Origin: an uncultured Gemmatimonadales bacterium
GTDB taxonomy: Bacteria > Gemmatimonadota > Gemmatimonadetes > Gemmatimonadales > GWC2-71-9
Direction: 5' to 3'
Length of the DNA stretch: 64,000 nucleotides
Assembly: GCA_963709905.1 (NCBI GenBank)
Contig: CAVPYI010000005.1
Coordinates: 147,897 to 211,896, forward strand
The notes under the pieces are model-generated. The model did not search any database and was not told the origin of the DNA. It saw nothing but the letters and a program-made list of their open reading frames with translations. The translations under genes and the position numbers were made by a program. This document shows, one piece after another, positions 17,049 to 54,927 of the stretch (within the stretch, counting starts at the first letter, position 1; every line of letters starts with the position of its first letter).

Positions 17049-18545
17049 TCACGGCACCCCGACCTGCCACAGTCCCGACAGCATGTCCGCCACGTACAGG
17101 TCTGCTCCGGCGAGCATCACCCCCCAGACGTAAGTGTTACCGCCACCCCCCGGACGAATCCGGGCGATCTCCCGGTTGGCCAGATTGCCACTCAGGGTCC
17201 CCGAGACGTCCAGCGCAACCACACCGCCGTCGTAGAAGGCGGCGTACAACCGCTGATTCGGCTCATCCATCCAGAAGTTGTGTGCCCCGGCGCCGGGCGC
17301 CGGGTACCGGTACGTGGCCACTTCCACCGGGTTGCCGAGATCCGACACGTCCACCACGTGGATGTCGCCCGACGAGGAGGAACCGATCGAGCCCGGACCC
17401 TCCTGCCCCACGAACAGATACCGCTTCTCCCCAGTGGTCGGATTCCAGAACCACCAGCCGTTGTGCGCCTGCCCACCCGCCGTCTGCAACCCGCCGACCC
17501 TGACCGGGGTCTGGGGCGTTCCGCCCGCGGTCCCCTTCCCCACGTCGTAGATGTACACCCCCTCGTTCCAGACGAAGCTGAAACAGAGGCCGTCCCGGAC
17601 GAAGTTGTCGTGGATGCCGTAGAACGGCGGGATCGGGGTCGAGCTCGCCAGCGTGATATTCCCGGTGGCCGCGTCCGAAAGATCGAAAATCACCAGTGCC
17701 GGACTGGGCGGGTTCTTGGCGGTGAAGGCGTAGAGAACCCCATCGACCACACCGAGTGACCCCGTGTGCAGTCCGGCGCTCACCGGGGCATAGGCCGACT
17801 GCACCGGCGCAGCCGGGCTTGCCAGGCTGTAGAGATAGATGCCCTGGTTGGTACCGCCTTCCGCTGTGGCGAGCAGCCACTGCCCGTCCGGCGATACCTC
17901 GAGGTCGCTGATGGTATTGACCCCGGCGACGATGATCGAATCCAACAGCACCGGGGCCCCGGTGCCGCTCAGCTGGAAGACCTTGATCGCCCCGGTGACC
18001 CCGGTGGTCCGTTGAAGGTGATTCCACGTCCCAACGTAGGCGTAGCCGTTGGCGACCCACAGGTCCGAACTGAACCGTTCGGGGAGGTTGTTCCCGCCGC
18101 CGAGTACCACCAGCGCGCCGGTGCCGGTGGCATGTACTACCGCGGTGTCGAGGCCATCCACTATGGCCAGTATTTCCTGACCCCCGACCAGCGGTCCGAG
18201 AGTCCAGACCGCTTCGGTCGTCCCGTCGACCGCGGTCGTGGTGCCTGCGGCCGACAGGCTCCCGCCACCCGCCCGGACCAGCCAGCCCACACTCGTTCCG
18301 GCGCCGACGTTGTCGCCCAACGAGTCGATGACCCGGACCCGGATCGGCAGCGGGAGCGCCGCCAACGGCGGACCCTGCTGATCGTCGCCCGCCACGACGG
18401 TGACGCCGACCGGATCGGGCCCGGGGTCGGGCCCGGTGCCTTTTCCGTCCCCACAGGCGACCAGCAAGGCGACGGCCAGCAACCCGGCAAAGGGTCTCGG
18501 CTTCCACTCACTTGTCCCGGGAGATCGATGGCGCTGCAGTTGCAT
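17049..18545 (-). CDS. lipoprotein with LVIVD-type beta-propeller repeats
   Basis: Signal peptide with lipobox LLVAC. Repeated motifs LVIFDLSDAATGN, IHVVDVSDLGNPVEV, VVALDVSG and YVADMLSGLW resemble LVIVD repeats. Confidence 0.7.
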   Translation of the reverse strand: MQLQRHRSPGTSEWKPRPFAGLLAVALLVACGDGKGTGPDPGPDPVGVTVVAGDDQQGPPLAALPLPIRVRVIDSLGDNVGAGTSVGWLVRAGGGSLSAAGTTTAVDGTTEAVWTLGPLVGGQEILAIVDGLDTAVVHATGTGALVVLGGGNNLPERFSSDLWVANGYAYVGTWNHLQRTTGVTGAIKVFQLSGTGAPVLLDSIIVAGVNTISDLEVSPDGQWLLATAEGGTNQGIYLYSLASPAAPVQSAYAPVSAGLHTGSLGVVDGVLYAFTAKNPPSPALVIFDLSDAATGNITLASSTPIPPFYGIHDNFVRDGLCFSFVWNEGVYIYDVGKGTAGGTPQTPVRVGGLQTAGGQAHNGWWFWNPTTGEKRYLFVGQEGPGSIGSSSSGDIHVVDVSDLGNPVEVATYRYPAPGAGAHNFWMDEPNQRLYAAFYDGGVVALDVSGTLSGNLANREIARIRPGGGGNTYVWGVMLAGADLYVADMLSGLWQVGVP

Positions 18546-18549
18546 CGAA

Positions 18550-19800
18550 TCACATCTTCGAGTGATGGTGACGGTCCCCGTTCAGGCTATCGGGAACCAG
18601 GCCGCCGTAACGGCCCATCCGGTGGCCGCTCAGGCGCCAGCTGGCCCGGAGCCCGAGTGAGACCGAATTGAACGATTCTCTCCCGTAGAATACGCTGGGC
18701 TGGAAGATTCCGCCGTCGATGTTTCGCATTGTACCGAAGGTCACCTCGACGAATGGCCGCAAATCGAGACCACCGGGCCCCGTCACCCGAACCGAATAGC
18801 CCAGAGTCTGGAGGGTCCAGCGGGTCGTTCCCGCGATCGAGTTCTCCAGGTGAGGCCGGATCGAGCGGAAGGGATCACTGGTTCGGAGGTCCTCCGGCCG
18901 ATCGCTCCGTTCGAAGCGGGCGTACGGCCGGTGGCGCCCGCGGGTCCACGCCGTTTCCAGCAGCACGCTCCGGAACACGAAGAAGCCGAACGCTTCCTCG
19001 GTGCGGGCCCATTCCGCCAGGGCATAGACGCGACCGCCGGCGAGTCCCCGCTCGATCCGGGCGGCGACGTGCCATTTCCAGGCGGTGGTCCCTGCGCCTG
19101 GGCGATGTTCGGGCGAATGGACCTTGGCCCGGGAGCCGGACACCTCCACACCGGACGCTGGATAGGCCGACAGCCGGGCCGACCAGGAATCCCCGAATCG
19201 CTCCCAATTGGGCCACTGTCCCGGGCGCTCCGGTTCGTCCCCGTTGAACAAGCCCGCCTCGAGCGCCACCGGGCCGGCGCGGACTCCGGCAATCACCACC
19301 GCCCGCTCGAGGATGTGCGCCAGGTGGTGGTTCACCGGATATCGGACGGGGGGACGGCTCATGGGATCGTCCGAGCCGAAGGGGGCGAATCCCTTCCCGG
19401 CGCTGATGGAAACCCGGATGGGTCCATCCCGGCGACCGAGTGGAGACGCCGCCGAGACCATCAGTTCATGGACGTAGGTGTGCGGGTGCCTCCGATCGTT
19501 GAACCCTTCCCCCCACGCACCGGGCGTCAGCTCCCCGTCGGGGATGGTCTGGCCCTCGAGATTCAGGGTTCCGAGTCCGCTCAGCCTGCCCTGCAGGGCC
19601 TGGGCGTGCACCATGACGACCGGCTGTACCAGCCGCGCTTCGGTGAGGTGGTTTCCGCCGGGGATCGGCTCCGCCCGGGTGAGCACGGCGACAGCCTGGC
19701 CGCTCACCGTCAGGGATGCCGCCTGCTGGGCCGCCAGAGCAGCGGAACCGGGAAGCAGCAGCAGGGTGGCGAGAACAGCAGGCGAAACGAGGGAGCTCAC
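18550..19800 (-). CDS. hypothetical secreted protein, probably outer-membrane beta-barrel
   Basis: GTG 19800 gives the signal peptide VSSLVSPAVLATLLLLPGSAALAAQ. Alternating-hydrophobicity strands throughout; several His-rich patches. The portion of the track ORF upstream of 19800 overlaps sdhB. Confidence 0.6.
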   Translation of the reverse strand: MSSLVSPAVLATLLLLPGSAALAAQQAASLTVSGQAVAVLTRAEPIPGGNHLTEARLVQPVVMVHAQALQGRLSGLGTLNLEGQTIPDGELTPGAWGEGFNDRRHPHTYVHELMVSAASPLGRRDGPIRVSISAGKGFAPFGSDDPMSRPPVRYPVNHHLAHILERAVVIAGVRAGPVALEAGLFNGDEPERPGQWPNWERFGDSWSARLSAYPASGVEVSGSRAKVHSPEHRPGAGTTAWKWHVAARIERGLAGGRVYALAEWARTEEAFGFFVFRSVLLETAWTRGRHRPYARFERSDRPEDLRTSDPFRSIRPHLENSIAGTTRWTLQTLGYSVRVTGPGGLDLRPFVEVTFGTMRNIDGGIFQPSVFYGRESFNSVSLGLRASWRLSGHRMGRYGGLVPDSLNGDRHHHSKM

Positions 19801-19807
19801 GCAGCGT

Positions 19808-20581
19808 TCAGGTGGCGGACTCGGCAACGGGTGCCGGCTCACGGGTCGCGCTCGCCCTGATGTAGTCACGGAACAGGCCCGCGATCCAGTCGATGGAGAT
19901 CTCCTTGGGACAGGCCTCCTGGCACTCGCCATGCCAGGTACAGCCACCGAACCCTTCGGCGTCCATCTGCTCGACCATGCTGAGCGCCCGCCGCATCCGT
20001 TCGGGCTGCCCCTGCGGCAGCCGGGCGAGGTGGCCCGCCTTGGCCGACGTGAACAGCATGGCGGAGGCGTTGGGGCAGGCGGCGACGCAGGCGCCGCACC
20101 CGATGCACTGAGCCGCGTCCATCGCCGCATCGGCGTCGCCTTTTGGCACCAGGACGGTGTTCCCGTCCGGGGCGCTGCCGGTGGAGACGCTCACGAACCC
20201 GCCGGCAGCGATGATCCGATCGAACGCGCTGCGGTCGACGACGAGGTCCTTCAGGACCGGGAAGGCCCGGGCCCGCCAGGGCTCGATGTAGATGGTATCG
20301 CCATCCCGGAAACTCCGCATGTGCAGCTGGCAGGTGGCCGTGCCCCGCATGGGCCCATGAGCGATGCCGTTGATCATCATGCCACAGGAACCGCAGATCC
20401 CCTCACGGCAATCGTGGTCGAAGGCGATCGGAATCTCGCCACGCTGAATGAGACCTTCGTTCACCACATCGAGCATCTCGAGGAACGACATATCCGGGCT
20501 CACACCCGTCGCGTCGTAGTGTACCAGGCGGCCCGGAGCGGCAGCGGTGGGTTGGCGCCAGACGTAGAGGATGAGGTTCAT
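19808..20581 (-). CDS. sdhB: succinate dehydrogenase/fumarate reductase iron-sulfur subunit
   Basis: 257-aa ORF with [22 protein letters not shown] and [11 protein letters not shown] cluster motifs. Confidence 0.95.
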
Positions 20582-49000: not shown

Positions 49001-50029
49001 CTACGGGCCGCCGCCCGCGGCCACCGGGGCGGCCTCGGTCGGGTGCAGGTACTCCATTCGGTACATCCGAATGAGTTCGAAGAAGTAGGAAAGTGCCAGC
49101 GGCCCGACCAGGATGCCCAGCAGCCCGAAGTAGCTCACTCCGCCGATCGCCCCCACCAGCGTCACCAGTGGGTGCACCTGGGCGAACCGGCGAAAGACCG
49201 CCGGGCGGATGACGATGTCCACGTTGCCGACCAGGACCAGGCCGATCAGCAGCAGGGCGACGGCGGCGCCGTATCGGGCGTCGAGAATCAGGGCGATCGC
49301 GCCGGGACCCCAGACCAGGGCCGAGCCCACCACCGGAAGGATGGAGACAACCACGGTCACGACCCCCCAGAACACGGCGTTGGACAGTCCGGTCGCCCAG
49401 AATCCGAGCGCGACGAAGACTCCCTGGACCACCGCCACCAGGCCGGTGCCGATCACGGTGGAAATGGTGACGTCCCGGAACCGATCGCGCAGCCGATCCG
49501 CGCTCGCCGGGGAGAACGGAATGTACGGCTTGACCGCCCCCCAGATCTGGGTGGGACGGAGCAGCAGATAGAACAGAATAAAGAGCGAGATCGTGAGGTT
49601 GAGGCCCAGGCGGGTGGCGTGGCCGATCAGGCCGAAGGCGGTGGCGCCGAGCCAGGCGATCGCCTTTTCGCCCAGTCCGGCAAGCCGTGGTCCGACTTCC
49701 AGCGTGCCGATTGTGAGGCCGGACAGTCGTTCTCGCAGTGGGCCGCGCAACACGCCGCTCGCGATGGACTGGGCCTGGTCCACCAGCAAGCCGGCAAACC
49801 AGATCGTGGGAACCACCAGCAGCATCAACGCGAGCAGAACCATGATTCCGGCGGAGAGCTGGAGCGGCAGCCGCCGGGAGAGCCACTCATGGACCGGGAC
49901 GAGAATGACGAACAGCACCAGGCCGCCAATGAGGCCGGTGGCGTAGGGTGCCAGCGCGTACAGAATGACCGACCCGAGGACCAGGATCAGCACTGAGGCG
50001 CGCTGCCTGGTGGTGTCCATGAATGGCAT
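49001..50029 (-). CDS. AI-2E family transporter (PerM/UPF0118)
   Basis: 342-aa polytopic membrane protein with C-terminal PL..L......G..G.LG...G.P motif. Confidence 0.8.
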   Translation of the reverse strand: MPFMDTTRQRASVLILVLGSVILYALAPYATGLIGGLVLFVILVPVHEWLSRRLPLQLSAGIMVLLALMLLVVPTIWFAGLLVDQAQSIASGVLRGPLRERLSGLTIGTLEVGPRLAGLGEKAIAWLGATAFGLIGHATRLGLNLTISLFILFYLLLRPTQIWGAVKPYIPFSPASADRLRDRFRDVTISTVIGTGLVAVVQGVFVALGFWATGLSNAVFWGVVTVVVSILPVVGSALVWGPGAIALILDARYGAAVALLLIGLVLVGNVDIVIRPAVFRRFAQVHPLVTLVGAIGGVSYFGLLGILVGPLALSYFFELIRMYRMEYLHPTEAAPVAAGGGP

Positions 50030-50110: not shown

Positions 50111-50193
50111 TGCCCGAGGCGAGAGTCGAACTCGCACGGGGTTGCCCCCGGCGGATTTTGAGTCCGCTGCGTCTGCCATTCCGCCACTCGGGC
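50111..50193 (-). tRNA. tRNA-Leu (anticodon CAA)
   Basis: Manual cloverleaf of GCCCGAGTGGCGGAATGGCAGACGCAGCGGACTCAAAATCCGCCGGGGGCAACCCCGTGCGAGTTCGACTCTCGCCTCGGGCA. It has a 7-bp acceptor stem, anticodon stem GCGGA/TCCGC with loop CTCAAAA, a long variable arm, and T-arm GCGAG-TTCGACT-CTCGC. CCA is not encoded. Confidence 0.9.
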
Positions 50194-50247: not shown

Positions 50248-51354
50248 TCAAATGGTTCGCCACGCCCGGTATGCCCCTCGCGCGGCCAGCGCGGCCAGCC
50301 GGCGCCGGAGGCGCACGACAGGAGAGGTCCCGCGTACCCCAGGCACGATCGGCCAGCCGACCTCCGCCCGGGTGCCTTCCTCGATGAGCTTGTCGACTAC
50401 TCGCGGATAGCCGACTCCGTGACGATGCACGGCCAGCCGCCACCGGAGCGTTCGGCCCAGATCGAATGGCGTCCGGGGCATGTCCAGCACCCGCTGGCGG
50501 CCCGCGAGCCACTCGGCCGCGCCCAGCCAGGTCAGGGCCAGATCCCGCGACGGCACCTCGGACGAGTCCAGCCGGCCTTCAATCACATCCCACGCAATCG
50601 GCTCGGCACTCGCCAGAATCACGCTCGCGTCCAGGAAGTAGCGCAGGCGGAACGCAGCGGATCCCTGTATCAGACCATGGGTGATACTGTGCCAGAGCAG
50701 TTCCGTCGCACAGGGAATCGGAAACTCCAGCCCGTTCCGGGCCACCGATACCGCTGCGGACGTCGCCCGGCGCCAGGCCTCCTCCGGCGATTCATGTTTC
50801 GACGTCGACAGGTGCAATTCGACGGCCACCCGGTCCGTGCCCCAGAGCGGAGTCAGGTGAAAATGGTTGAGTGGGGTCCGGTCCTCGGCGCCGGCCGGCT
50901 GGTAGCCCGCGCGTTGCATATGGTTCCAGACTTCCGTGGCACGATCGTGAGGCACGATCAGGTCGACATCACCGGTGGCTCTGGCATCGGCGTAAGGATA
51001 GCGGGCGGCACCCACGCGCCGGGCGACGCCCTTGAGCCACACATGCGGATAGCGGTTGCTGGTGAGCCAGTCGCTGAGCCGGGCAACCTGCGCGTCTACC
51101 AGGAGGTTCCGGGCGACGTGATCGCGAGCCAGCTGCGACAGCCAGGCGGCGAACACCGGGTCAGGGGCATCCTCGGCTCCGGCGCCCTTGAGCCGACGGT
51201 AGAGCCACAACCCACAGCCCTCCTGGCGAACCACCGACGCAAGCCCGGCCGTCCTGAGCCCGCGCCAGGCCGACCGCAGCGCGACCGGATCCGGCTCGCT
51301 GCCGAAATGCAGGGTTTCGAGCAGCACCGCGACCGGATCTCTCACCGCCCCCAT
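50248..51354 (-). CDS. nucleotidyltransferase-family protein of the type found in lasso-peptide/PqqD cassettes
   Basis: 368-aa ORF with W.KG...........R..GDVDLIVP and HL(T/S)PLW-like motifs that I associate with the 'uncharacterised nucleotidyltransferase' family. Last gene of the RiPP-like operon. Confidence 0.7.
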   Translation of the reverse strand: MGAVRDPVAVLLETLHFGSEPDPVALRSAWRGLRTAGLASVVRQEGCGLWLYRRLKGAGAEDAPDPVFAAWLSQLARDHVARNLLVDAQVARLSDWLTSNRYPHVWLKGVARRVGAARYPYADARATGDVDLIVPHDRATEVWNHMQRAGYQPAGAEDRTPLNHFHLTPLWGTDRVAVELHLSTSKHESPEEAWRRATSAAVSVARNGLEFPIPCATELLWHSITHGLIQGSAAFRLRYFLDASVILASAEPIAWDVIEGRLDSSEVPSRDLALTWLGAAEWLAGRQRVLDMPRTPFDLGRTLRWRLAVHRHGVGYPRVVDKLIEEGTRAEVGWPIVPGVRGTSPVVRLRRRLAALAARGAYRAWRTI

Positions 51355-51430
51355 CGTCGCCCTCCATGTCTCTGCTCAAGACCCCGCGCGGGCGAATCCC
51401 CGGCGCCCCGGGCAGGCCCGCCTCGGGTGC

Positions 51431-51859
51431 TCAACCTCCCGGATCCTGCTGCTCTGGAAACCTGGCGATCATCGTGTGGGTCGTGCTCGGAGAGGACGCC
51501 CGCTCAAGGTACGGCACCCCGGCGTAGAGGAGCCAGGCGTGGGCGGTGAGCGGCCCGTCCGGCTCCCGCCGGACGCCAATGCACAACTCCACCGGAATAC
51601 CGTCTCGACGAAGCAGATAATAGAGGATGGCCGACCGCTTGAGACAGGTGTGCCGCCATGGCCCGGGGAGAGTATACAGCAGATCGTCCACCCACACGGC
51701 GAGCTCCGCCGGATCATTGGCCGTGGTAATCACCCGTGGCCCGCTCCGCCCCAGCCAGGCGCAGAGACGGCTGAACGAGATCAGGGACAAGAGCGGCGGA
51801 ATGACCAAGGCGCTGATGGAGGCACGCAATTTGAGGGCGATCGGCAGAGGAGAGCTCAC
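51431..51859 (-). CDS. lasso peptide biosynthesis B2-type protein (transglutaminase-like cysteine protease)
   Basis: PGPWRHTCLKRSAILYYLLRRDGIPVELCIGV...LTAHAWLLYAG carries the McjB-type Cys...His core. GTG 51859 overlaps the PqqD stop (GTGA); the track ORF extends to 51901. Confidence 0.8.
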   Translation of the reverse strand: MSSPLPIALKLRASISALVIPPLLSLISFSRLCAWLGRSGPRVITTANDPAELAVWVDDLLYTLPGPWRHTCLKRSAILYYLLRRDGIPVELCIGVRREPDGPLTAHAWLLYAGVPYLERASSPSTTHTMIARFPEQQDPGG

Positions 51860-52134
51860 CCAACTCCCTCCTCCTCCGTGATCAGACTCGCCTGGCTGCA
51901 CAGATCCAGAAAGGCGCGCACGCTGGCCGTGGCGTGCTCGGGAGTCACTTCATACCGCTGGACCAGCACGGCCACCAGCTCCTCGAGCGTCCTGGGAGTC
52001 GAAAGCGCCTCCAGGATGACGACGCCAGTCTTGCTGACCGTGAAGTAGCGCCGAGTACCGAGGTGCAGCACGACACCCTCTCCCTCGATCGCGCTGAGTC
52101 GGAGGTCGGGATGGGGCCGGTAGCGGATGGTCAT
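51856..52134 (-). CDS. PqqD-family RiPP recognition element (lasso B1-like)
   Basis: 92-aa ORF: ...EGEGVVLHLGTRRYFTVSKTGVVILEAL..PRTLEELVAVLVQRYEV..E.A...V..FL..L is a typical PqqD fold sequence. Its ATG overlaps the kinase stop. Confidence 0.85.
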   Translation of the reverse strand: MTIRYRPHPDLRLSAIEGEGVVLHLGTRRYFTVSKTGVVILEALSTPRTLEELVAVLVQRYEVTPEHATASVRAFLDLCSQASLITEEEGVG

Positions 52135-53045
52135 CGGATCAATTCCGACAGGAGATCGGGCCTCCCGAACAGATCAGGCCCCAGGAAGACCCGGTACGCC
52201 CGACTCTGGCGACCGAGTCGGGTCAGCAGCTCCAGGTGCTCCTGGGCGAGTCCGGGTTCGACAATGACCCAGGCGGACCAGCGCACCAGTTCGGCGAGGG
52301 CCTGGCCGGGGCTCAGCAGTTCGGCCCGGGTGCGGTCGCCGCTCACGGTGGTAAACACGATGATCTCGGGCTCGACTCTGGCCACCCAGCTTCCCCCCAG
52401 CTCGTCCGGCCAGTATCCCACTTTGCCCCGGTCGGGAAGCGAGATTCCACCCGAGTGGGCCAACAGCTCCTGGCCCCCGGGGCGGAGCGCGATCCGACTT
52501 CGAAATGCGTGGGCTCCGACCCGATCTCCCGCCGAAACCAGGAAGGTGATGTCGTCGGTGCCGATGGCCCACCCCCACGAGCACACCAGCGCGGTGGTGG
52601 TCGATTTGCCCGAGCCCGAGTCACCTGCCAGGAGCCAGCCCCTGCCCTGAGGATCTACGGCGGTTCCCCCGTGCACATGATGCCAACCGGCCCGGCGCAG
52701 GAGAAAAATGAGCACGCTGAGAAAGAAAGTGCGCGTACTCTCTTCGATGCGTTCGGCCGCTTCGGGCGACAGCACTACCCGGGCGGAGGGTTCTCCGGGA
52801 CCCAGCTCCGCCACCGCGGGGGCAACCCCCCAGCGGATCGAGAGTCTATTATCAGGGGGAAGGACGTGGAAGGAAACGCCGGGCTGCTGAAACGCGGCCG
52901 GAGTCCCGTCCGGCGGTGCGACGGCTTCGATTCGAACGTCGATACGGAGGGGCACCGGCGGAACGATCCGGCCTTCGACCAGCCACGACTGCAGATGACC
53001 CCGGATGGCGGCGTCCGCGCAGCTGACCTGGATTTCAGGGGACAT
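52131..53045 (-). CDS. HPr-kinase-like serine/threonine kinase (RiPP-associated)
   Basis: 304-aa ORF. HGGTAVDPQGRGWLLAGDSGSGKSTTTALV resembles the HPrK/P C-terminal domain P-loop, as in kinases of phosphorylated lasso-peptide clusters. Confidence 0.75.
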   Translation of the reverse strand: MSPEIQVSCADAAIRGHLQSWLVEGRIVPPVPLRIDVRIEAVAPPDGTPAAFQQPGVSFHVLPPDNRLSIRWGVAPAVAELGPGEPSARVVLSPEAAERIEESTRTFFLSVLIFLLRRAGWHHVHGGTAVDPQGRGWLLAGDSGSGKSTTTALVCSWGWAIGTDDITFLVSAGDRVGAHAFRSRIALRPGGQELLAHSGGISLPDRGKVGYWPDELGGSWVARVEPEIIVFTTVSGDRTRAELLSPGQALAELVRWSAWVIVEPGLAQEHLELLTRLGRQSRAYRVFLGPDLFGRPDLLSELIR

Positions 53046-53067
53046 GCCAGTAAGATGGGCACGAGAG

Positions 53068-53106
53068 CCCCCACGTGCCGGTCTGCCTTACGGCCGACAC
53101 GTGGGG
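53068..53106 (-). terminator. stem-loop between the precursor gene and the kinase gene (possible attenuator or processing site)
   Basis: cccccacgtgccg...cggccgacacgtgggg: about 12 bp of pairing with one mismatch. No U-tract follows. Confidence 0.3.
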
Positions 53107-53193
53107 TTCACGTTCGCTAACCGACGCCTATCCCTCCAGGTCCGGCCAGTTCAGCGCCTGCGCCGAACCGCCTCATCCTGGATTAGCCTAAGC

Positions 53194-53310
53194 TCAGGTA
53201 GGGATGCCGCCGCCGCCGTCGTTCGGTCCCGAAATCAGCGTCACCGCTGCGAGCGAGCCCTGCTCGGTCAGTGTGGGCTCTTCGAACTGCTGCCGGCTCT
53301 CGTTTGACAT
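53194..53310 (-). CDS. 38-aa RiPP precursor peptide with lasso-type leader
   Basis: MSNESRQQFEEPTLTEQGSLAAVTLISGPNDGGGGIPT. AAGGA Shine-Dalgarno sits 7 nt before ATG 53310. First gene of the operon, preceded by about 200 bp of unusually AT-rich DNA. Leader motif match is described in findings. Confidence 0.75.
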   Translation of the reverse strand: MSNESRQQFEEPTLTEQGSLAAVTLISGPNDGGGGIPT

Positions 53311-53552: not shown

Positions 53553-54038
53553 TCAGTGACCCGCTGGAACACAGCTCACTCTGGCAAAGGGAAACTCGAC
53601 CCGGCGACGGGTCCCTCCGGTCGGCCCGTCGATCCAGGCCAGAACCGAGTCCCGGTTCACCCGACGGTAGCCGATCTCCTGCGGGTAGTCGTGCGCCGGG
53701 TTGGCAAAGCGTAATTCTTCCCCGGACGGGACCCCCACAGTGCGGAAGGTGGCCGGTGCCTGGCCGGAAGGGTGGGCTTCGAGTGACCAGCCATCGGCTC
53801 GCATCCGCAGAATCAGAAACTCATACTCAACCACCGAGTCTCCCCGAACGGTTCGACTGGTGCCGAGCATCATCCCGCCCCGCGGCAGCGACCACTGCTC
53901 TTCCACGACCCTCCCATTCCGTTCCCGCCGCCAGCAGCCGGCGAGCCACCCGGGAGAGATTGGAGTAGTGTACGGGGCTCCCAGAAACATCGCCACCAGA
54001 ATGAGCGTCATCTGTCGAAGCATTGATCCTCCGGGCAC
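53553..54038 (-). CDS. hypothetical secreted protein
   Basis: 161-aa ORF with an N-terminal signal-like segment MTLILVAMFLGAP. No motif I can name with confidence. Confidence 0.55.
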   Translation of the reverse strand: MPGGSMLRQMTLILVAMFLGAPYTTPISPGWLAGCWRRERNGRVVEEQWSLPRGGMMLGTSRTVRGDSVVEYEFLILRMRADGWSLEAHPSGQAPATFRTVGVPSGEELRFANPAHDYPQEIGYRRVNRDSVLAWIDGPTGGTRRRVEFPFARVSCVPAGH

Positions 54039-54084
54039 GGTGTTGGATCGCCGACTCTACCCGATTCTCAGCCGCTGGTCTTGA

Positions 54085-54927
54085 ATGAACCCGACCTCCG
54101 CCTCGACCCCGGAGTTTCACGAACTCAGCCCGCGCGGAGAGCTGGCACTCTGGGTTCGGCGTCTCTGGGCACTCCGGGTTCCCGCCGGCGACCTCGCGAC
54201 CTTCGAGCCGGTCCTACCCGACGGCTGTCCTGAGCTGGTTTTCAACCTGGCCGACCCGTTCGAACGCCTGCATCCCGACCGCACTGAACGCCAGCCGGGG
54301 GTTCTGCTGGCGGGTCAGATGCTTGGTCCTCTGCTGATCCGTCCTACCGGCGCCATCGACCTCGTGGGAGTGCGCTTTCACCCCTGGGGGACCCTTCTGC
54401 TCGGAACCCTGCCGGCGCGGGATCTGGTGAACCGGATCGTTCCCGACGACGCCGTCCCGCGCATCGATGGACTGCGCGGCGCGTTGGCGGCGACTCCGTA
54501 CCTGGCTCAACGCCTTGGTCTGCTGGCGGAACGGTTGGCCACTGGCCTCCGGACCAGGGCCGTCACGCCGCCGTCGGCCCTTCGAGCGATCGGTACCGGG
54601 ACCGTTGGCTCGGTCTCACTGGCTGCCCGGCTGGCGGGGATCTCCCCACGCCATCTCGAGCGGCTCAGCGAGGCCTGGGTTGGCCTTCCGCCAGGACAGC
54701 TGGTTCGGCTCATCCGGTTCCAGCGCGCCCTCCGCAGCCTGCGGCATCGACCGGCCACGCCGCTGGCCCGCCTGGCGCTGGAATGCGGGTACGCCGATCA
54801 GGCCCACCTGACCAGGGAGATTCGCCGCTACAGCGGCATGACTCCATCAGCCGTTCGCACCGGGGTCGGAGCCCTCACCGAGAGCTTCATTGAGACCACC
54901 GCTGTCCTCCCGGTGGAGTCCAGCTAG
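54085..54927 (+). CDS. AraC-family transcriptional regulator
   Basis: C-terminal HTH region ...LARLALECGYADQAHLTREIRRYSGMTPSA is the AraC/XylS signature. Confidence 0.85.
   Translation: MNPTSASTPEFHELSPRGELALWVRRLWALRVPAGDLATFEPVLPDGCPELVFNLADPFERLHPDRTERQPGVLLAGQMLGPLLIRPTGAIDLVGVRFHPWGTLLLGTLPARDLVNRIVPDDAVPRIDGLRGALAATPYLAQRLGLLAERLATGLRTRAVTPPSALRAIGTGTVGSVSLAARLAGISPRHLERLSEAWVGLPPGQLVRLIRFQRALRSLRHRPATPLARLALECGYADQAHLTREIRRYSGMTPSAVRTGVGALTESFIETTAVLPVESS

Follow-up and report, generated by a model that had tools for sequence, protein, structure and literature searches.

A predicted cyclase-independent ribosomal peptide operon of Gemmatimonadota that joins a lasso-type leader-processing pair to a kinase and an NTP_transf_5 enzyme

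What can an operon that is built like a lasso peptide cluster produce when it encodes no lasso cyclase? The question is raised by five co-directional genes on the minus strand (53310-50248) of a 64,000-nucleotide stretch of contig CAVPYI010000005.1 from an uncultured Gemmatimonadales bacterium, referred to here as the window, which encode a precursor peptide, an HprK-like kinase, a discrete PqqD-type recognition element (B1), a lasso-type leader peptidase (B2) and an NTP_transf_5 enzyme (N). Our answer, to which we give a probability of roughly 70%, is that this is a functional, cyclase-independent operon for a peptide that is made on the ribosome and modified after translation (RiPP), that it belongs to a Gemmatimonadota-wide family, and that it would follow the logic of the linear polyphosphorylated peptides (LPPs) of Bacillota with a lasso B1/B2 pair acting on the leader. 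Sequence comparison and structure prediction give the components, their catalytic residues, the operon layout, the conservation of the precursors and the absence of a cyclase from the window and about 50 related loci.

An operon without a cyclase

The earlier note on this DNA, made from the letters alone, had outlined the same five genes, and their direction and coordinates, as well as the four-nucleotide start-stop overlaps between the kinase and B1 genes (ATGA, 52134-52131) and between B1 and B2 (GTGA, 51859-51856), are exactly as it gave them (Table 1). Because of the GTGA overlap with the B1 stop codon and the starts in relatives, we place the true start of B2 at GTG 51859 (142 aa) rather than at 51901, the start of the longest open reading frame (ORF). 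The gene families named in that note were borne out by Pfam and NCBIfam profiles and, for the kinase and N, by AlphaFold models compared with Foldseek. The conservation figures of the enzymes come from alignments of 42-49 homologues.

The model of the kinase (pLDDT 89.7) has its best Foldseek matches in PEPCK (1e-7) and HprK/P (2e-5), and its homologues carry a precomputed PF27840 ScmC annotation. Conservation of its residues H123/H125, K147, D164 and D165 reaches at least 97% among 45 homologues, and these residues fit the His-Lys-Asp-Asp signature of lasso-tailoring kinases (PMC9266682), and the enzyme is predicted to be a Ser kinase acting on the leader-bound precursor. B1, a RiPP recognition element (RRE), matches NCBIfam lasso_PqqD_Bac at 1.1e-11, below the cutoff, and its best sequence matches in the PDB are 9x90_B (PbaB1, a paeninodin-like lasso RRE; 6.7e-5) and TbiB1 (0.01). 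B2 scores 69.7 bits against NCBIfam lasso_biosyn_B2 (cutoff 33) and 1.2e-17 against Pfam Transglut_core3; its C86, H121 and E133 (numbered on the 156-aa ORF) likewise show a conservation of at least 97%, with a His-to-acid spacing of 12, as between His182 and Asp194 in McjB. The D129-V-D131 metal site of N is invariant in 24-42 homologues, and its model (pLDDT 93.5) matches the nucleotidyltransferases (NTases) MenT, ANT(2'')-Ia and LnuA and, weakly, FKRP, an NTase-fold, phosphodiester-forming ribitol-phosphate transferase. Sequence searches of the PDB with B2 and N gave no matches. Two metagenomic homologues, P0287 (511 aa) and P0324 (579 aa), are in-frame fusions of B2 and N, and the protease and the NTase can therefore be expected, by the Rosetta-stone argument, to act in one pathway, in which N would, by prediction, act further on the phospho-Ser.

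The absence of a cyclase from the 64 kb, as claimed earlier, was upheld by every search made of the window. No Asn_synthase domain (PF00733) was found by the Pfam scan among the 20 window ORFs of at least 400 aa, which include complex I, succinate dehydrogenase, a glycosyltransferase, CarA, RadA, DnaB, a TonB receptor, an M17 peptidase, NfeD, a thiolase and an M16 peptidase, with two ORFs giving no match. No window ORF carries the SGGxDS PP-loop motif, and a phmmer search with E. coli AsnB against the six-frame window ORFs of at least 120 aa returned nothing at E<=10; as a positive control, the same query found a genuine asparagine synthetase (AS)-like gene. Nor did phmmer searches with AsnB and AS-like queries find an AS-like gene in about 50 loci of the kinase family, with up to 10 kb on each side. 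Two candidates in these loci were rejected: the match of the AS-like query from locus L061 in L042 is PurF, hit through its GATase domain, and the SGGVDS match in L042 and L043 lies in a 521-aa GuaA-like ORF. B2 is the sole peptidase of the cassette. There is no signal-peptidase homologue among the five genes or in the Pfam-annotated related loci, and no radical S-adenosylmethionine (SAM) gene in the window cassette or its flanks. Set beside a lasso cluster, the window agrees in leader, B1 and B2 and departs from it in the cyclase and the core.

The same cassette recurs widely, as the proposed comparison of neighbourhoods across taxa confirmed with about 50 Gemmatimonadota species genomes. Public data hold more than 400 kinase homologues, mainly from soil metagenomes and Gemmatimonadales metagenome-assembled genomes (MAGs), and a scan of one genome per GTDB species gave 50 loci, all from Gemmatimonadota, whose kinases are 41%-72% identical to that of the window. 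By tblastn, the order K-B1-B2-N was found in essentially every locus that was long enough (about 45 complete loci of the 50). The flanking genes vary among groups of loci and the order is conserved, and the cassette therefore appears to be maintained or selected as a unit; the B2-N fusions suggest as much. The cassette is also present on one contig binned as Rokubacteria.

The lack of an exporter, which the earlier note had treated as part of the system, holds for the window, where tblastn searches with Wzt and an MsbA-like exporter turned up no ABC ATPase across the 64 kb, but not for the family. A convergent pair of Wzt (ABC_tran + Wzt_C) and Wzm (ABC2_membrane) genes lies directly 3' of N in 24 of the 41 loci with enough downstream DNA and spans several synteny contexts, and three further loci (L020, L032 and L054) have an MsbA-like pump. 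Because relatives carry such adjacent transporters, the missing exporter is a property of the clade of the window, L001 and L007 and not of the system.

Precursors and the conserved hydroxyl residue

The window leader, MSNESRQQ-F9-E-E-P12-T-L14-T-E-Q-G18-S-L-A-A-V-T24-L25, fits the YxxPxLx3Gx5Tx-type pattern of lasso leaders (F9-x-x-P12-x-L14-x-x-x-G18-x5-T24-L25, with the Thr penultimate) and scores 18.2 bits against NCBIfam lasso_leader_L3 (cutoff 19). An AAGGAAA Shine-Dalgarno-like sequence lies about 7 nt 5' of the precursor start. The predicted core, ISGPNDGGGGIPT (I26-S27-GPNDGGGGIPT38), has 13 residues, and its sole acidic residue is the Asp at position 6. Homologous precursors were found as small ORFs 5' of the kinase gene in more than 40 related loci, often in two or three copies (one to three genes per locus). 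The statistics given here refer to 56 sequences, and core lengths and core positions assume cleavage by the lasso rule (Thr at -2).

The leaders follow the consensus (K/R)-P-F-V-(E/A)-P-x-L-x-E-E-A-S-L-A-x-V-T-L, with Phe at -15, Pro at -12 and Leu at -10 from a Thr that is present in all 56, and with Leu directly after this Thr in 54/56. At +3 from the Thr stands a Ser (45/56) or Thr (8/56), which is Ser27 in the window. The rest of the core, 6-37 aa long as a whole, is hypervariable: some tails are short and Gly-rich (GGGGIPT, GGGGGTPT), others long and rich in Arg, Asn and His (...RRRGHGHGHGHSS), and some cores are minimal, with only four residues past the +3 position (VSPPPV, QSPGPT, FTGLNT). 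The C-terminal residue is Ser in 16/56 and Thr in 12/56 and otherwise G, A, L, V, N, M, P, H, Q, I or D. A lasso ring requires a small N-terminal residue and an Asp or Glu acceptor at position 7-9, and the tail of a lasso core must be long enough for threading. The cores open with Ile or Val in 38/56 cases and have Asp or Glu at positions 7-9 in 9/56 only; these precursors should therefore be unable to serve as lasso substrates wherever a cyclase might be encoded.

Long tails that are His-rich (GHGHGHGH, HGHGHNS) or Arg/Asn-rich follow x-S-G-G-G in L018, L021, L022, L023, L025, L027, L029, L031, L036 and L055, and at least three His residues occur in 13/51 cores, which suggests metal binding or a charge-based function.

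A likely site of modification is indicated by the LPPs, which Popov et al. described in Bacillota in May 2026 (Nat Commun; PMC13381572). LPP clusters have one to three precursors with the motif YxxPxVLxHQxIxFETxxS and variable C-termini; the leader is cut after the Thr, kinase-dependent (poly)phosphorylation takes place on Ser3, three residues past this Thr, and the product is linear (PMC13381572). The precursors of the Gemmatimonadota family share the spacing of this motif (F-15, P-12, L-10, T0, S+3), although not its Tyr, HQ and FE residues. As the register is identical to the T-x-x-S of LPPs, Ser27 is predicted to be the target of the kinase. The earlier note had placed the phosphate on the C-terminal residue, which the comparison does not support: a Ser or Thr is found at the C-terminus of 28/56 precursors as against 53/56 at +3, in the register of the LPP phospho-Ser3.

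Between the precursor and kinase genes lies a strongly folded region (minimum free energy -74 kcal/mol, z = -3.9, none of 200 shuffles equally stable). An equivalent perfect hairpin of 12-18 bp was present in 6/6 relatives tested, with a conserved stem sequence (GCGCGCCAGGC...GCCUGGCGCGC) and, after some, a short U-rich run. Hairpins between precursor and enzyme genes are common in RiPP operons and keep the precursor mRNA in excess. The hairpin probably fixes the ratio of precursor to enzymes, either as a partial (leaky) terminator or by stabilising the mRNA.

Known systems, a proposed pathway and its rivals

The nearest parallel in gene content is formed by the LPP clusters, lppA-K-B-S-D-N, which encode the precursor LppA, the HprK kinase LppK, the RRE LppB, the signal peptidase I (SpI)-like LppS, the pump LppD and the NTP-transferase LppN, and no cyclase (PMC13381572). 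They were stated to be confined to Bacillota and lie inside capsular-polysaccharide loci, and the SpI-like (SipW-type) LppS is the marker that defines the family (PMC13381572). The window cassette likewise has an HprK-like kinase, a discrete PqqD-type RRE and an NTP_transf-type enzyme without a macrolactam cyclase, and its relatives have one to three precursors with a conserved N-terminal and a hypervariable C-terminal part. Since LPP clusters combine a kinase, an RRE and an NTP-transferase without a cyclase (PMC13381572), the earlier suggestion of an uncharacterised RiPP class finds no support. Unlike in LPP clusters, the leader peptidase is a lasso B2 Cys protease and not a serine peptidase of the SpI/SipW type, the window has no MsbA-like pump (relatives have mostly Wzt/Wzm, with the MsbA-like type in three loci only), B1 matches PbaB1 and not LppB as judged by sequence searches, the host belongs to Gemmatimonadota, and the cores are much shorter than the 45-aa LppA core. 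The family thus appears to be a B2-dependent parallel to LPPs that stands outside the LppS-defined family.

The second parallel is the pseudomycoidin cluster, psmC-A-K-B1-B2-N-D (PMC6993621; PMC9266682), in which PsmK phosphorylates the precursor and PsmN then adds a hexose onto the phosphate, an activity abolished by mutation of D134/D136 (PMC6993621). The order A-K-B1-B2-N of the window is that of the psm cluster minus C and D, with B1 and B2 split in both, and D129/D131 of N are equivalent to the PsmN pair. The His-Lys-Asp-Asp signature of the kinase and the penultimate Thr of the leader are shared with pseudomycoidin and paeninodin. In contrast to these two, the cassette has no cyclase and no conserved C-terminal Ser, its cores are unable to form 7-9-membered rings, and its conserved hydroxyl adjoins the leader-core junction. 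Taken by its genes, the operon is most simply read as a phospho-lasso-type cluster that would work without a cyclase.

Two further systems share parts of this scheme. Uncharacterised ScmC-type (SynChlorMet-like) cassettes also combine a PF27840-family kinase, a PqqD RRE and a B2-like protease without Asn_synthase, but differ by radical SAM, major facilitator superfamily (MFS) transporter or polysaccharide-synthesis genes and by the lack of NTP_transf_5; their kinases are 320-350 aa long and score about 100-115 bits against the profile of the window family. A search with the kinase profile through 1.84 billion representatives gave 43 clusters at E<=1e-30, then a gap, and then about 1,300 remoter ScmC-like kinases. 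Among such outgroups, L057 (10001-14551) has the kinase with Transglut_core3, a small ORF, radical SAM, PqqD and MFS, P0165 (a JGI contig) has a gene set resembling that of L057, and L059 (5971-8972) has a Polysacc_synt flippase with PqqD, Transglut_core3 and the kinase; all three are cyclase-less. In the assembly of fosfazinomycin, the RRE-adjacent nucleotidyltransferase FzmU accepts, as a surrogate of NTP, a triphosphate-like intermediate built by kinases (PMC13622209, preprint 2026). Likened to N by chemistry alone, FzmU provides an earlier example of NTase chemistry with a polyphosphorylated non-nucleotide; there, unlike here, it is a small-molecule phosphonate that carries the polyphosphate, and a ribosomal peptide serves as acceptor. 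The literature on PF14907, SynChlorMet and Gemmatimonadota lasso peptides yielded no account of this cassette.

In the pathway that we propose, B1 would bind the F-x-x-P-x-L motif of the 38-aa precursor, as its homology to lasso and LPP RREs suggests, and the kinase would (poly)phosphorylate Ser27 on the full-length precursor, a site that is indicated by conservation and by Ser3 of LppA. B2, with its Cys-His-Glu residues, would then cleave the leader, most likely after Thr24-Leu25 to release I-pS-GPNDGGGGIPT, or after Thr24 if the LPP precedent is followed; the computed monoisotopic [M+H]+ is 1141.548 for ISGPNDGGGGIPT, 1221.515, 1301.481 and 1381.447 for this peptide with one, two and three phosphates, 1383.568 with one phosphate and a hexose, and 1254.632 for the alternative product LISGPNDGGGGIPT, while the phosphorylated full-length precursor would be at 3968.82. 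In the last and least certain step, which is speculative, N could attach a group such as a PsmN-type hexose to the phosphate or polyphosphate through a phosphodiester link, perhaps by using, in analogy with FzmU, the Ser-polyphosphate as an NTP surrogate. No macrolactam ring would be formed, and the adjacent Wzt/Wzm or MsbA-like ABC transporter is the likely exporter in most relatives. The leader-cleaved, uncyclised and phosphorylated product that the earlier note had proposed appears the most likely one, the cores being too short and variable for cyclisation.

Several points weigh against this reading. Every chemical step rests on homology, and the sequence matches of the kinase to Hpr_kinase_C, TIGR00679 and ScmC are weak (18.9 bits against TIGR04249 ScmC, with a cutoff of 125); its nearest outgroups occur in radical-SAM or polysaccharide settings and not in characterised phospho-lasso or LPP clusters. 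B1 has no match to LppB (9x8z) at E<=1, and because it matches PbaB1 instead, the likeness to LPPs may have arisen by convergence. In the sole LPP reconstitution LppN was inactive (PMC13381572), and the chemistry of PsmN is incompletely defined (PMC6993621). Alternative modification sites are offered by a leader Ser at -5, conserved in 50/56, and by a Pro-Thr motif that occurs in 23/51 cores and is C-terminal in the window; as a universal second site the latter was rejected, being limited to these 23 cores. The cyclase searches covered the window and the related loci, not whole genomes.

The position of the phosphate and its fate can also be read otherwise. That the linear, leader-cleaved peptide would be phosphorylated (and phosphoglycosylated) in paeninodin style on the C-terminal Thr38 is improbable: the paeninodin, ThcoK and PsmK kinases do act on a C-terminal Ser (PMC9266682; PMC6993621), the window peptide ends in Thr, and a '(I/V/L/T)-P-T' motif, ending or internal, recurs in the cores and is C-terminal in 6, but a C-terminal Ser or Thr in only half of the precursors argues against paeninodin-type phosphorylation when the C-terminal Ser of kinase-containing lasso clusters is 'extremely conserved' (PMC9266682), the +3 hydroxyl corresponds to the mapped LPP site, and LppK rejected Thr at its site (PMC13381572). 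It is conceivable, if rather unlikely, that the phosphopeptide is a handle which N links through a phosphodiester to a sugar or glycan, and that Wzm/Wzt exports a peptide-capped or peptide-primed surface glycoconjugate. The convergent transporter pair after N in several synteny contexts, the capsular-polysaccharide loci around the LPP clusters of Bacillota (PMC13381572), the flippase beside the outgroup K+B1+B2 trio of L059, the hexose that PsmN places on phosphate (PMC6993621), the weak structural likeness of N to FKRP and the triphosphate-like surrogate employed by FzmU (PMC13622209) point in this direction; against it, no Wzt/Wzm pair adjoins the cassette in the window, in L001 and in about 15 other loci, three loci have a peptide-type MsbA-like pump instead, the linkage could partly reflect the shared ancestry of related genomes, and the cassette contains no glycosyltransferase. 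We tentatively add the similarly doubtful idea that the Ser-O-polyphosphate might itself be a peptidyl 'NTP surrogate', with N carrying out an NMPylation-like transfer of the phosphopeptide onto a sugar or glycan hydroxyl with release of pyrophosphate, followed by Wzm/Wzt-type export. If true, this would account for polyphosphorylation by the kinase, for the role of PsmN/LppN-type enzymes and for the placement of the cassettes beside polysaccharide export genes in two phyla, and it would amount to a new kind of ribosomal-peptide-tagged surface polymer.

Two other explanations concern the missing cyclase itself. The locus could supply precursor and tailoring functions to a true lasso pathway that has its cyclase and exporter elsewhere in the genome, as every lasso component other than the cyclase is present, the leader agrees with the lasso consensus, the searches had the limited reach named above, and an N homologue (43% identical) stands beside an Asn_synthase-like gene in L061. 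We consider this very improbable, given cores of down to 6 aa that begin mostly with Ile or Val and mostly lack an acceptor at 7-9 (the window Asp is at 6), about 50 species-level loci with 10-kb flanks that never contain an AS-like gene, and an L061 peptide and locus that lack the acceptor at 7-9 and B1/B2, respectively. Hardly credible is a lasso cluster in decay, deprived of its cyclase and making no product: the window has neither cyclase nor exporter, but all its ORFs are intact, the catalytic residues are conserved, translational coupling and the leader persist at kinase identities down to 41-50%, and so does the intercistronic hairpin.

A cyclase-independent operon of the kind favoured here would carry the range of linear phosphorylated RiPPs from Bacillota into a little-studied soil phylum, with about 50 species genomes and hundreds of metagenomic homologues, and would make the use of the lasso B1/B2 pair alone, without a cyclase, a conserved strategy. 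With RRE-Finder, about half of the discrete 'lasso' RREs had no neighbouring peptidase and cyclase and were treated as possible false positives (PMC7470986); the family bears on this half of the 'lasso-type' RREs, which genome miners now discard, and on the open questions of what 'orphan' lasso-type B1/B2 pairs are for and what NTP_transf_5 enzymes do. With five genes and a predicted product of 13 residues, the operon offers a manageable system for working out the chemistry of NTP_transf_5 (PsmN/LppN) enzymes and for studying B2 activity apart from cyclisation, and it is worth experimental follow-up because the cassette is compact and widespread. A role at the cell surface, or one related to metals, is hinted at by the hypervariable cores rich in Gly or in His/Arg/Asn and by the frequent linkage to Wzt/Wzm.

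Chromosomal setting and divergent loci

Table 1. Positions of the operon genes and associated features in the window and in related loci
Feature	Location	Strand	Remarks
Precursor gene, 38 aa, MSNESRQQFEEPTLTEQGSLAAVTLISGPNDGGGGIPT	53194..53310	-	Lasso-type leader; homologous small ORFs in relatives
Precursor-kinase intergenic region, two stable GC-rich hairpins	53046..53193	-	Main stem-loop 53106-53069
HprK-like kinase, 304 aa (ScmC family, PEPCK/HprK fold)	52131..53045	-	Walker A GDSGSGKST
B1, discrete RRE (PqqD family, lasso B1 type), 92 aa	51856..52134	-	Pfam PqqD 5.9e-15
B2, lasso-type leader peptidase (transglutaminase-like Cys protease), 142 aa	51431..51859	-	lasso_biosyn_B2, Transglut_core3
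N, NTP_transf_5 nucleotidyltransferase-fold enzyme (PsmN/LppN type), 368 aa	50248..51354	-	Pfam PF14907 3.8e-26
tRNA-Leu(CAA)	50111..50193	-	Just 3' of N; neighbour, outside the pathway
Hairpin in relatives	L001 9915-10000; L002 9918-10000; L004 9873-10000; L007 9863-10000; L010 9900-10000; L039 9921-10000		
Wzt/Wzm pair	L004 12613-14677; L010 12745-14825		
Wzt/Wzm pair, further loci	L014, L016, L019, L021, L023-L027, L030, L031, L033, L037, L041, L047, L053, L055, L056		

The cassette has the GC content of its surroundings, 68% for the window, with no compositional anomaly. The region 5' of the operon had been called AT-rich; it is lower in GC than the window, but still at about 62%. Housekeeping genes of the chromosome flank the operon (citrate synthase, an AI-2E-family transporter, a DUF6265 protein, an AraC regulator, inorganic pyrophosphatase and FloA/NfeD); these flanks are syntenic with those of L001, the relative at 72% identity. 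Of the neighbours listed earlier, the housekeeping genes and the AraC regulator were recovered, the 'small secreted protein' corresponds to the DUF6265 protein, and the first gene 3' of the tRNA is the AI-2E-family transporter. This transporter (49001-50029) was rejected as a dedicated exporter: it is adjacent to the cassette in the window only, about 4 kb away in L001 and otherwise unconserved. In the window, the AraC(DUF6597)-DUF6265 pair (53553-54927) is situated upstream of the precursor, but in L001 (13630-15056) downstream of the tRNA, which appears to be a local rearrangement around the cassette. Elsewhere in the window, two adjacent minus-strand ORFs, 17049-18545 (498 aa) and 18550-20130 (526 aa), have coding-like GC3 and match no Pfam family at E<=1e-5.

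The tRNA-Leu(CAA) stands beside the operon as had been noted, has a promoter-like site of its own (50230-50202) and adjoins the cassette in L001 as well. Neither an integrase nor an att-like repeat was seen beside it, in agreement with the earlier note, and a genomic island at the tRNA was ruled out by the missing att-like repeat, the native GC, the position of the cassette 5' of the tRNA and the adjacency common to L001. A tRNA-Leu lies within about 1 kb of the cassette also in L001 (12850-12933), L002 (8712-8797), L004 (9050-9134) and 11 more loci, in three arrangements: CAA 3' of N (window, L001), CAA upstream (L002) and UAA upstream (the L004-like clade). This proximity may be due to chance or to a recombination hotspot.

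A few loci depart from the common gene set. In L032 (12869-14581) and L020 (6802-8223), the MsbA-like pump follows N and gives A-K-B1-B2-N-D, the psm order minus C; L054 (11322-13172) has A-K-B1-pump without B2 or N, and L009 (10001-12656) has K-B1-N without B2 and with the precursor gene downstream of N. In L061 (9001-13091; 'Chloroflexi' MAG GCA_005880915.1), the N homologue is followed by a 646-aa Asn_synthase-family protein (SGGIDS) and a remote ScmC-like kinase, after which a peptide, MKRPYETPRLVEYGPIADRTLQTPGQSALTRNETGTSKARPSHR, with a lasso-type leader is encoded. L061 may be another uncharacterised AS-like RiPP type, and its gene content points to a reshuffling of such modules across lineages.

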